The notes below the pieces were generated by a model. The model saw only the letters and a program-made list of their open reading frames with translations, ran no database searches and was not told the DNA's origin. The translations under genes and the position numbers were made by a program. A DNA stretch of 64,000 nucleotides from Dehalococcoidia bacterium (GTDB lineage Bacteria; Chloroflexota; Dehalococcoidia; Lucifugimonadales; UBA3495). The stretch lies in assembly GCA_034428715.1 (NCBI GenBank), contig DAOUHE010000290.1, forward strand, positions 988 through 64,987, read 5' to 3'. This document shows, in pieces, positions 4,495 through 14,065 of the stretch. Within the stretch, counting starts at the first letter, position 1, and every line of letters begins with the position of its first letter.

Positions 4495-6201
4495 TTAAAA
4501 TAGCTCCGAGATCTCCCGGTCAAGCTGATCATCGGCCGTTTCCATCTGGCCATCGTCGCCCTTCTTGCGGGTTCGGCCCGGCAACCGGCTGAGGGATTCG
4601 TATGATTCAGCCGACCCGTATTCCCTGGTGTGGATCACCAGGGGCATGGGAAGGGCATGGCCGAAGATCAGGGCCTGCTGTTTAGCCTCTAACCGGGTCA
4701 AAACACCCCGAAGCTGGCGGCTGCCGGAAGTGCCCTGGAGCACGGCGTCTATGTCCCGGTCATTGTCCAAAAGGCAGGTCAAGCGCGTCCCCACCTGGCT
4801 CATGACTTCGGAGTCGATGGCGCTGGGGCGTTGGTCGATGACCATCAAAGTGACGTTGTATTTGCGCAGCTCGCGGGCAATGGTGCCGAATATGGTCTGG
4901 GAAGCCACGGCGGGGTCCAGGAATTTGTGGGCTTCTTCGATAACTATCACCAAGGGCCGAGGGTCTTTGCCGGACCCACCTTCAAAGGAATCTTTCAGAA
5001 ACACGTACCGGTCGTGGATGCGCCGGGTCAGCAGATTGCTGGCCAGGATATAGGCCATCAGGTCGTTGCCGTAGCGGCCAAATTCTAACACTACGTGCTG
5101 GCCACGTTCTAAGTGTTCGATGATGGTCCTTGCGGCGTCGTGGTCCGTTTTTTCGACCAGGAATTCAAGCCGTTTCAAGCGATTCAGCCGGTTATACAGC
5201 GCTCCCAAAGCGTTGGGCTGCACCTGGATTTTATCCGCTAGCTCTACCAGGGCACTTCGGTCCTCTACATCAAGGAACTGCCTAAGCCAATTTGGTTGGC
5301 CGAAATACTGCTGCAGATTATAGGCAGATGACGCCGCGACTTCGGACAGGTTCAAAGTCTCCCGCAGTAACTCCACGTCTTCAGGTTCGATTTCGCTATA
5401 ACCTATGCGTACCACCTCGTCTGTGGACACTTTGCGCGTAATGGCGTGCTGCGGATCCAGCGTGAACGTCGATACTCTGGAAGAAAACAACTGCTTAAGG
5501 CCCTTGGTAAATCGGTTATTTTCTGAATCATATACTCCCCAACCGTACTCGCTGTGCATGTCGAAGATTAGAGAAGAAGCCCGGCCGCCTTGCAGAATGC
5601 CTACCAGAAGGAGGCGGGTCAGGAATGTTTTTCCGGTGCCGCTCTTGCCGAATACGCCGATGGAACGTTTGACCAATTCATCCAGGTCCAGGCAAACCTT
5701 GGTTTCCATGTCCAGGGGGCTGCCGATCCAGAAGTGGCGTTCGTCCTCGGCTCCAAAAACCGTGGCCACGTCGTCGTCCGAGGCGGCAAAGGCTTTGGAG
5801 AAATGGGGCGGGATGGTCTTGGCCGCAACCGGCGGTTGAGAATCACCCCGGACGGCTGGCAAGATCAATTGGGGCAGCACTGTGATGGTCCCGTAGGCCA
5901 CCGAGCCCGCCATAACCTGAGCGATGAACGGGTCGTCTACCGGCGGAGGGTTCTGCTTCAGGCGTGGATCGGAGCTGCCCAGGGCAATCTCGGTCAGTGT
6001 GCCAAAGAAGCGGCCACGGTTTCCCTGGATGGTTACGAAGGTGCCCACCTTCAGGTCTTCCACCGAGGTCTGGGAGTTCAAGCGAACTTCGACACCATTG
6101 GTCAACGACCCATCGACCACCATGCCCAACGAAGCGCCGGCAACCAATTGTGGATAGCCGGAATCAGGCATTTCTTGGTTTGAACCAAAGCCATTGGTCA
6201 T
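4495..6201 (-). CDS. HerA/FtsK-superfamily ATPase (HerA-like, DUF87 type) with an N-terminal barrel
   Basis: Walker A is FGKSGTGKTF and Walker B is PLVIVIEEAHKF, followed by VIDQRPSAID. The start is taken at the ATG (MTNGFG...) that overlaps the upstream stop in ATGA at 6198..6201. Confidence 0.8.
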   Translation of the reverse strand: MTNGFGSNQEMPDSGYPQLVAGASLGMVVDGSLTNGVEVRLNSQTSVEDLKVGTFVTIQGNRGRFFGTLTEIALGSSDPRLKQNPPPVDDPFIAQVMAGSVAYGTITVLPQLILPAVRGDSQPPVAAKTIPPHFSKAFAASDDDVATVFGAEDERHFWIGSPLDMETKVCLDLDELVKRSIGVFGKSGTGKTFLTRLLLVGILQGGRASSLIFDMHSEYGWGVYDSENNRFTKGLKQLFSSRVSTFTLDPQHAITRKVSTDEVVRIGYSEIEPEDVELLRETLNLSEVAASSAYNLQQYFGQPNWLRQFLDVEDRSALVELADKIQVQPNALGALYNRLNRLKRLEFLVEKTDHDAARTIIEHLERGQHVVLEFGRYGNDLMAYILASNLLTRRIHDRYVFLKDSFEGGSGKDPRPLVIVIEEAHKFLDPAVASQTIFGTIARELRKYNVTLMVIDQRPSAIDSEVMSQVGTRLTCLLDNDRDIDAVLQGTSGSRQLRGVLTRLEAKQQALIFGHALPMPLVIHTREYGSAESYESLSRLPGRTRKKGDDGQMETADDQLDREISELF

Positions 6202-6806
6202 GGCCTTACCGTCCTCAATATGGCGTTGAGCCGTGGCAGGTCTCCCGCCAGTTCCCCAGCCAGGTCTTTGCACGCCCGCAGGAGGAAGGCTTGACTTTCA
6301 TCATACGACGCGGCCGCTTCCCGCAGACACGCCCCCACCACCTGGTCGGCGACGGGGATGCCCGATGACAACAGCAACCCGATCCAGCCGGAGTGGCTGG
6401 CCAGGCGCATCACCTCTTCCGATGAACAGGCGTGGACAAAGGCGTGGACCCGGGGAGGCAAGGGAGGCAGAACTGGTACCTGAGCGCCCTGGTCCTGGTG
6501 ACCGACGATGACCACCTCGAAACGGGAGGTAAGCAGGCGCTCCAACTGGGGATTGTTGCGGAAAATCTCTTCTTCGGTTGCGGCTGATTCTCCCCGGGCT
6601 AGAACCGGCCGGGTGGCGTCCAGAGGCTCGGTGGTTACCCGGTAGACGACACCGTGAACGGCCGGGCCGCCGGCGCGGACAAAGGAGCCCAGGGGAGGCG
6701 CATCATAAAGCCTGTAGCATTGGGCGGTAAAGGACGTGGAGTTGGCCTCCACCACTTCCCCCACCCGCCGGGACTCCTGGGTTCCGCCGTTATTCATGGC
6801 GGTCAT
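6198..6806 (-). CDS. Hypothetical protein, translationally coupled partner of the HerA-like ATPase; N-terminus resembles a HAS-type barrel
   Basis: 202-aa ORF. The ATGA stop/start overlap links it to the ATPase gene. The N-terminal segment VGEVVEANSTSFTAQCYRLYDAPPLGSFVRAGGPAVHGVVYRV loosely parallels the ATPase N-terminus. I recognised no NurA, SIR2 or DUF4297 signatures. Confidence 0.5.
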   Translation of the reverse strand: MTAMNNGGTQESRRVGEVVEANSTSFTAQCYRLYDAPPLGSFVRAGGPAVHGVVYRVTTEPLDATRPVLARGESAATEEEIFRNNPQLERLLTSRFEVVIVGHQDQGAQVPVLPPLPPRVHAFVHACSSEEVMRLASHSGWIGLLLSSGIPVADQVVGACLREAAASYDESQAFLLRACKDLAGELAGDLPRLNAILRTVRP

Positions 6807-6827
6807 TGCTCAGTTACAGCCCCGGTC

Positions 6828-7031
6828 CTATTCGACCTGGAGCTCTTGCCCGGCTTGCAATTCCTGCAGCTTATCCACGCCTTTGGCTATGGCGTCTTTA
6901 ACCAAACTGCGGGTTTCGCTCCCCGGTTTGGGCGCCAGTAGCAGGCCGATAGCCACACCCGCCAAGGCGCCCAAAGCCAATCCCACTGTAAGATTCAATG
7001 CAACGCTAGAATGGCTGTGATTGTGTCCCAT
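6828..7031 (-). CDS. YtxH domain-containing small membrane protein
   Basis: 67 aa. A transmembrane segment is followed by LLAPKPGSETRSLVKDA, as in the YtxH family. Confidence 0.65.
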   Translation of the reverse strand: MGHNHSHSSVALNLTVGLALGALAGVAIGLLLAPKPGSETRSLVKDAIAKGVDKLQELQAGQELQVE

Positions 7032-13657: not shown

Positions 13658-14065
13658 TTACCAGTCTGGCTGCCGGACTTCTAGACCGGGAACGCGATTA
13701 AATTCTCTGATGTTGTCTGTAAGAACCGCGTATCCGTAGGACAATGCGGTCGCTGCAATTATAGCGTCGTGGGAACCGATGGCCTGCCCGGAGGCCGCCA
13801 GCGCCGCCCAGATTTCAGCGTGAACCCTGGCTACCCTCAAATCAAATGCCAAGACCGGGAGTCTCTCAAGAACCGCCTCAACAAAGGCTTCGCCTCTTAT
13901 GCGGCGCTGGGATGAAATTGATCTTAGGACACCGACCAGTATCTCTGCTGCCGTTATGGCAGCCAATGCCATCGGCTCGTTAAATGCAACGACGGTCAAA
14001 TCACTGATTGGCCGTCTCTGACGTTCTATATTGATAAGGACGCTGGTGTCGATTAATTGGGCCAT
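13658..14065 (-). CDS. vapC: PIN-domain toxin (VapC type)
   Basis: 135 aa. PIN acidic residues are present (LIDTSVL..., HDAIIAATAL, LTDN). The gene overlaps the upstream antitoxin gene. Confidence 0.8.
   Translation of the reverse strand: MAQLIDTSVLINIERQRRPISDLTVVAFNEPMALAAITAAEILVGVLRSISSQRRIRGEAFVEAVLERLPVLAFDLRVARVHAEIWAALAASGQAIGSHDAIIAATALSYGYAVLTDNIREFNRVPGLEVRQPDW

Follow-up and report, generated by a model that had tools for sequence, protein, structure and literature searches.

What does a small protein do when its gene is joined to that of a HerA-type ATPase, and with which partner does such an ATPase work? The question is raised by a stretch of 64,000 nucleotides (hereafter the window) of contig DAOUHE010000290.1, assembly GCA_034428715.1, from a Dehalococcoidia bacterium of the phylum Chloroflexota. 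The window carries three closely packed genes, which an initial annotation, made from the sequence alone, had read as a possible uncharacterised two- or three-component HerA machine with no known HerA partner. We call the small gene next to herA, and its product, X. Our analysis indicates that X-herA is probably not a new system but an additional component, so far undescribed, of a known DNA-end-processing machine. The features concerned are as follows.

6828..7031, minus strand: YtxH-like small membrane protein of 67 amino acids (aa); matches Pfam YtxH (PF12732) with E 1.3e-11 and 45.2 bits against a cut-off of 37.5.
6198..6806, minus strand: X, 202 aa; co-linear with HerA over roughly its first 195 residues, lacks a Walker A motif, and appears to be a distant branch of DUF8166.
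6198..6201, minus strand: ATGA junction of the X stop and the herA start; TGA at 6200..6198 overlaps ATG at 6201..6199.
4495..6201, minus strand: herA, encoding a HerA/FtsK-superfamily ATPase of 568 aa counted from the ATG at 6201; HAS-barrel, Walker A and Walker B.

The layout of these genes is as first described. Reading the open reading frames (ORFs) of the window confirmed all three on the minus strand at these coordinates, the YtxH frame 21 nt upstream of X (spacer 6807..6827), and the 4 nt that the X stop and the herA start share as ATGA. This stop/start overlap suggests that X is made together with HerA. A longer herA frame with a GTG start runs from 6273. A scan for promoters and terminators was uninformative: it found 3 promoter-like sites where 1.4 +/- 1.3 were expected, and 2 terminator-like sites where the expectation was 3.3 +/- 2.1.

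The ATPase is recognisably a HerA protein. It matches Pfam DUF87 (E 1.7e-27) and is the sole above-cut-off DUF87 match in its own genome. The N-terminal barrel and the two nucleotide-binding motifs that had been noted in it are borne out by this match, by Walker A (GKSGTGKT, residue 185) and Walker B (VIVIEEAH, residue 418), and by a Pfam HAS-barrel match of E 2e-5, whose 25.1 bits fall just 0.1 bit below the cut-off of 25.2. HerA models of NCBIfam and PADLOC match it partially (best PADLOC E 9.1e-34). The nearest solved chains are HerA proteins, 8wiv (E 1.2e-21) and 4d2i (E 7.9e-18), aligned over only ~115-170 residues of the ATPase core; the better of the two, 8wiv, is titled "HerA central domain-containing protein".

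Pairing of X with herA is conserved outside the genome in which it was found, a point on which the initial annotation had made its proposal depend. We examined the best 80 of 173 genomic relatives of X, all of them Dehalococcoidia, SAR202 or Chloroflexota metagenome-assembled genomes. In 79 of these loci herA lies directly downstream of X, and the remaining locus has just 112 nt of downstream sequence. Where both genes are present (79 loci), the X stop and a start codon in the herA frame share exactly 4 nt in 69 cases; the count took the herA start nearest to the X stop and is therefore biased towards small gaps. The pairing, and the exact overlap in 69 loci, are far beyond chance. Together, X and herA appear to be co-transcribed, tightly coupled and widely conserved neighbours.

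No other gene accompanies the pair with similar regularity among these relatives. Among the 63 loci that are longer than 10 kb and have full 5-kb flanks, X and herA are the only families present in 63 of 63, and no true flanking family exceeds 24; the next most frequent clusters are antisense shadow ORFs inside X and herA. A gene for YtxH lies upstream of X in only 2 of the 80 loci, which are the two nearest relatives, and nurA lies directly upstream of X in 6. Thus, the proposed three-gene unit that included YtxH was not borne out. We reject YtxH as a member of the module; it is a lineage-specific, incidental upstream neighbour.

X belongs to a large protein family. The window protein matches nothing in Pfam (E<=1), NCBIfam (best E 0.19) or PADLOC. 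NurA, SIR2 and DUF4297 are ruled out as identities of X by the Pfam and PADLOC scans, as the initial annotation had supposed from the lack of their motifs. Searches of Protein Data Bank sequences gave 0 matches at E<=10, with the single sequence and with a 30-sequence profile alike. In a set of 5.8 billion proteins there are 537 homologues at E<=0.001. The best 120 of these are ~185-226 aa long, unnamed or "hypothetical", assigned to Chloroflexi/Dehalococcoidia where labelled, and without a precomputed Pfam domain. The 30-sequence profile defines a family of 937 clusters at 50% identity; 39 alignment columns are invariant in those 30 sequences, which are 57-84% identical to the window protein. 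No longer, fused form of X scored among 4336 candidates, which is weak evidence.

Profile-profile comparison suggests that X is related to the front end of HerA. An N-terminus that loosely mirrors the barrel of the ATPase had already been noticed, and this resemblance found support when profiles were aligned with hhalign. A first comparison, of 109 X proteins of 185-235 aa (drawn from 150 listed representatives plus window X) with 62 HerA sequences, gave 21% (P 1e-3). A larger set of 68 HerA sequences gave 86% (E 5e-6) and placed X residues 10-176 on HerA residues 20-195, a region that takes in the barrel and the linker and reaches the site of the first strand and P-loop. The Walker A pattern G-x4-GK[ST] is absent from X.

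Structural models agree with this placement. The ESM Atlas model of P0030, a homologue 66% identical to X, has a pTM of 0.86 and aligns with archaeal HerA models at TM 0.55-0.59 over 140-152 residues. Its nearest Atlas clusters, some of them from Cyanobacteriota and Armatimonadota, are auto-named "Helicase HerA barrel domain-containing protein". A minority of their members carry PF09378 (HAS-barrel) and/or PF26500 (DUF8166), PF09378 being found on 10-50%. An Atlas search limited to named clusters other than HAS-barrel and DUF8166 returned nothing usable. We conclude that X is best described as a putative motor-less paralogue or relative of the HerA front end, from the barrel up to the position of the P-loop.

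A second branch of the X family lies within DUF8166. In a sample of 201 Chloroflexota genomes, some that were negative for X and positive for NurA carry an ORF of 198-260 aa (X') between nurA and a divergent herA (5 loci). Six such nurA-adjacent ORFs align with X at an hhalign value of 96.7% (E 3.2e-10). PF26500.1 (DUF8166) is found on 74 of 74 database relatives of the X' branch, and the 69 of these that are 190-235 aa long align with X at 97.5% (E 7.9e-12, 167 columns). The DUF8166 branch is present in 46 of the 201 genomes, a count that includes one weak cross-match to the first branch and one genome with both. Where nurA stands elsewhere in DUF8166-branch genomes, herA immediately follows X' in 17 of the 18 loci examined.

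Likeness between the two branches extends beyond their profiles. DUF8166, which Pfam auto-names "Helicase HerA barrel domain-containing protein", is similar in length (~200-250 aa), stands upstream of herA and often after nurA, and is structurally matched in the Atlas at TM 0.88-0.89. In contrast, no precomputed Pfam domain is found on window X or on the top 120 of its 537 homologues, and, the first Met apart, just 11 positions are conserved at >=70% in both branches. X would thus be a distant relative or branch of the DUF8166 superfamily, with the window branch outside the Pfam model. Those 11 positions hold only Gly, Pro, Thr and hydrophobic residues, which suggests that X has no catalytic site. 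A literature search for the term DUF8166 found no paper, and DUF8166 has no assigned function. The X family is therefore partly catalogued as a domain of unknown function (DUF) and is functionally undescribed in the searchable literature.

The genome that carries the window also encodes NurA. There is exactly one match, on contig C273 (E 2.8e-26), where a 406-aa ORF matches Pfam NurA with E 3.8e-26; no solved chain was matched by its sequence. This nurA stands on another contig than herA, directly after selB. On the same contig, 2.7 kb upstream of nurA, a 200-aa protein with DUF6883 and DUF4926 is encoded (L035:5318-5920) by a gene that overlaps the end of a HemN-like radical SAM gene.

In relatives, nurA often lies close to X. 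Among the first 29 X loci at phylum level, 10 have no herA within 1.5 kb; in 8 of these 10 a conserved ORF of 400-470 aa lies directly upstream of X, and all 7 such ORFs that were scanned are NurA (Pfam E 2e-17 to 5e-36). Across the phylum sample we located 83 X genes (84 rows, with the second fragment of a split X in G199 and a second HerA piece in G014 omitted). Measured between matched envelopes, so that the true gene gaps are smaller, nurA is upstream of X within 500 nt at 66 of the 83 and within 5 kb at 75, herA is downstream of X within 500 nt at 41 and within 5 kb at 53, and nurA-X-herA are all tightly arranged at 28. We infer from these counts an ancestral layout nurA-X-herA that has broken on either side of X. 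The claim that the ATPase has no known HerA partner therefore fails: the genome holds one NurA, and in relatives nurA stands directly upstream of X (66/83).

X, HerA and NurA are also found in the same genomes. The window branch of X is present in 82 of the 201 genomes, HerA orthologues (E<=1e-20) in 81, and both in 80. The two genomes with X and no HerA are 57-58% complete, and in the single genome with HerA alone (G121) a divergent X immediately precedes herA. NurA is present in 130 genomes, and in 81 of the 82 that are positive for the window branch. With both X branches pooled, 126 genomes have X and 130 have NurA; of the 133 genomes with either gene, 123 have both, 3 have X only and 7 NurA only. 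The seven include five from one family with weak NurA scores, plus G038, a genome flagged as unpublished that is counted in both the 130 and the 7.

Within the window's lineage, nurA has been unlinked and kept. NurA occurs in 35 of 41 genomes of the same order, X in 36, and both in 34. Sister families of the order have the two genes side by side, and in the window's family hundreds of kb to Mb separate them. Besides the window's own genome, 20 of 24 others of this family still encode NurA. Thus, nurA appears to have been kept after unlinking.

X is a single-copy gene with an all-or-none distribution within taxonomic families: it is present in 8/8, 13/13 and 13/13 genomes of three families (f4, f17 and f21) and in 0/12 and 0/8 of others. 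It is also present in genomes of 1.4-1.9 Mb, and its reading frame is intact in nearly all genomes. A few loci differ. Contig CAXXFI010000002.1 carries two X-herA copies in opposite orientation with equal scores (L061 and L062; G208:C3:3217-3810 and 292158-292751), one of them near the contig start, which points to a large inverted duplication or an assembly artefact. At G229:C8:55369-56022, in the same order as the window, X is matched in two pieces (profile 7-106 and 102-197), which suggests a frameshifted or split copy. The matches at G105:C1:299771-300355 and G044:C17:72330-72923 are each reported with one in-frame TAG inside.

In other Chloroflexota, nurA keeps the company of repair genes. 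Many genomes of the DUF8166 branch have nurA directly after a gene for an SbcC/Rad50-like ATPase of ~1020-1070 aa. An SbcD/Mre11-like phosphoesterase gene precedes this in L124 and, judged from its N-terminus alone, in L126; in both, mutS follows nurA. We observed this archaeal-like Mre11-Rad50-NurA grouping in bacteria at L116-L131 (e.g., L124:219-8626, L126, L127 and L131), with X'-herA elsewhere in the genomes.

The DUF8166 branch extends to haloarchaea. A tblastn search of plasmids with window X gave no match; a protein of the DUF8166 branch matches four haloarchaeal megaplasmids at 28-34% identity. The two that we opened carry in a row genes for a metallophosphoesterase, an SMC ATPase, NurA, a DUF8166-like hypothetical protein and an ATP-binding protein. 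Both rows adjoin a DEAD/DEAH helicase or phospholipase D gene.

NZ_CP084885.1, 183086-190958 (L154): Natrinema zhouii megaplasmid, five-gene row in the annotated order.
NZ_CP119991.1, 237900-245871 (L155): Halobaculum marinum megaplasmid, five-gene row in the annotated order.

Around X-herA in the window, the genes are metabolic. The neighbours encode an acyl-CoA dehydrogenase, FAH, DUF35/ChsH2, a CoA-transferase and oxidoreductases; the ten flanking genes scanned comprise metabolic enzymes and one PIN-domain gene 7 kb away. The latter (13658-14065, minus strand; VapC-like, Pfam PIN E 3.4e-13) is the sole toxin-antitoxin or defence-like gene within ~7 kb of the pair.

The reading we favour, with reasonable though far from full confidence, is that X and HerA form the conserved two-gene core of a NurA-HerA-type DNA-end machine, in which X is a non-catalytic third partner and from which nurA has here moved away. 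Given the NurA of the same genome and the place of nurA upstream of X in relatives, this would be a NurA-HerA system with an extra member, and not a HerA machine that lacks NurA. The earlier proposal of an uncharacterised two- or three-component HerA machine thus holds in part: X-HerA is a real, coupled and conserved pair, although NurA is present and YtxH is not a member. In the window's family nurA would have been relocated elsewhere on the chromosome and yet retained. X, without a catalytic role of its own, may bind NurA, or the HerA ring at its barrel collar or close to it, and may mediate or regulate NurA docking or ring assembly as an adaptor or platform, an assembly factor, or a regulator that competes for NurA. 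The most likely biological role would be DNA-end processing for break repair, because nurA has sbcCD-like and mutS neighbours in sister lineages, because X is spread lineage-wide in single copy, and because the metabolic flanks are without defence genes.

Several points weigh against this reading. The homology between X and HerA is moderate, given the difference between the smaller and the larger HerA set; the DUF8166 branch alone aligns with HerA at only 5% (E 0.008); and Pfam HAS-barrel (PF09378) finds no match in window X and matches 7 of 30 family members at E<=1, the best at 0.01. The position of X, and its action on HerA and NurA, are predicted from sequence. Because related genomes are not independent of one another, the co-occurrence counts imply more separate events than there were. 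The window's own genome has no nurA next to X-herA, and of the 80 nearest loci 72 have neither nurA nor ytxH beside the pair. Furthermore, X seems not to be universally needed, because the two characterised bacterial NurA-HerA systems are described as two-component.

A stronger form of the same idea is tentative, and we consider it possible without leaning towards it: X, comprising DUF8166 and its sister branch, may be an obligatory third subunit of a widespread NurA-X-HerA machine, a free copy of the HerA collar that serves as the real NurA docking platform. Such a machine would extend across Chloroflexota, probably to Cyanobacteriota and Armatimonadota, and to haloarchaeal megaplasmids.

Known NurA-HerA complexes provide the framework in which X can be placed. 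The NurA dimer of Deinococcus radiodurans is reported to dock on the HAS-barrel face of HerA, a hexameric double-stranded DNA translocase, in a 2:6 ratio, and acidic barrel residues to bind NurA (PMC9960219). One alternative, which we regard as unlikely, is that X is a transient assembly factor or inhibitor whose free barrel caps the HerA collar or sequesters NurA until DNA is damaged. The homology and linkage data are those that speak for a stable third partner. A barrel-only copy could compete with the HerA barrel for NurA, given the docking described for D. radiodurans (PMC9960219), and an acidic cluster of X that hardly varies (E73, E78 and E80, in at least 90% of 30 sequences) recalls the acidic barrel residues reported there, although this parallel is not an aligned equivalence. 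Against it, the 4-nt coupling in 69 of 79 loci suggests that X and HerA are produced in constant proportion, as is more usual for subunits.

A role in defence is a rather poor prospect. X-HerA with NurA would then be an anti-phage module and not a repair machine, as the partial PADLOC matches of the ATPase and the helicase or phospholipase D genes beside the haloarchaeal megaplasmid copies could suggest; a 2026 review also describes bacterial NurA-HerA complexes as mainly degrading foreign viral DNA (PMC13748450). SIR2-HerA and DUF4297-HerA defence pairs are similar in that a HerA-family ATPase is encoded with a small partner and is matched by PADLOC HerA models. X differs from those partners: it has no SIR2, DUF4297 or PADLOC match, resembles a copy of the HerA N-terminus without conserved polar residues, and is distributed lineage-wide in single copy. 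That distribution, all-or-none per family and reaching genomes of 1.4-1.9 Mb, argues against a defence module, as do the sbcCD-like and mutS genes beside nurA in other families. No defence effector was found beside X-herA by PADLOC on X and YtxH or among the ten flanking genes scanned. A defence-island setting, which the initial annotation had raised, was not seen, and we reject it on the metabolic flanks, on flanks that vary without any conserved defence gene family among 63 loci, and on the lineage-wide single-copy spread.

Equally part of what speaks against our preferred reading is a distinctly improbable third possibility, that X-HerA in the window's clade serves some other DNA or membrane process independently of NurA, for instance together with YtxH. 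The unlinking of nurA in the whole family, the 72 nearest loci in which X-herA stands without nurA or ytxH, and the position of YtxH just upstream of X in the window would fit this. On the other side, the genome and 20 of 24 others of its family have kept NurA, as have, across the phylum sample, 81 of the 82 genomes with X, while YtxH recurs in only 2 of 80 loci and no other flanking gene is conserved. Finally, X is very unlikely to be a functionless, decaying leftover of a partial herA duplication, as its co-linearity with the 5' part of herA and its usual place directly upstream might suggest. The family spans 937 clusters, 39 alignment columns do not vary across 30 sequences, nearly every genome has an unbroken reading frame, the place next to herA is common to both deep branches, and the homologue P0030 has a confident model (pTM 0.86).

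A NurA-HerA system with X as third partner differs from those described so far in its gene content. Bacterial NurA-HerA is presented in two papers as a pair of proteins encoded in one operon, with only the Thermus and Deinococcus systems characterised (PMC13748450, PMC9960219). As in D. radiodurans and Thermus thermophilus, a HerA ring ATPase with a HAS-barrel and a NurA nuclease are both encoded in the genome studied here. Unlike the two-gene systems in those accounts, Chloroflexota relatives have a third gene, X, between nurA and herA. Furthermore, nurA and herA do not share an operon in the window, where nurA is on another contig, whereas they do in relatives (tight at 28 of 83 X genes), and window HerA matches solved HerA proteins only in part of the ATPase core.

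The archaeal mre11-rad50-herA-nurA operon of Sulfolobus, Pyrococcus and Thermococcus draws on the same enzyme families. Its likeness extends to the nurA genes that follow SbcD/Mre11- and SbcC/Rad50-like genes in other Chloroflexota and to the single row on haloarchaeal megaplasmids; unlike these, the window has no mre11- or rad50-like genes and no nurA nearby. For the thermophile operon, the literature searched, as far as its text was accessible, yielded no stand-alone barrel protein. Nor did the accessible text of that literature name a third NurA-HerA subunit.

The usual picture of NurA-HerA is that of a minimal end-resection machine made of two proteins, which a conserved third gene calls into question. 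This gene appears to derive from the domain of HerA on which NurA docks, and 123 of the 133 Chloroflexota genomes in the sample that have X or NurA have both. The 2026 review states that in bacteria the synteny of nurA with herA is not stable (PMC13748450); this does not hold for Chloroflexota. If X were an obligatory subunit, the two-component textbook model of Deinococcus, Thermus and thermophilic archaea would be one of two architectures. The more modest result is that the window itself is one more instance of a nurA-X-herA module, in a lineage with an unlinked nurA. Our findings provide a lead on function for a Pfam DUF, DUF8166, and for a sister branch beyond Pfam coverage. The presence of X suggests that there is an extra, unstudied layer of assembly or control in many bacterial and some haloarchaeal NurA-HerA systems.

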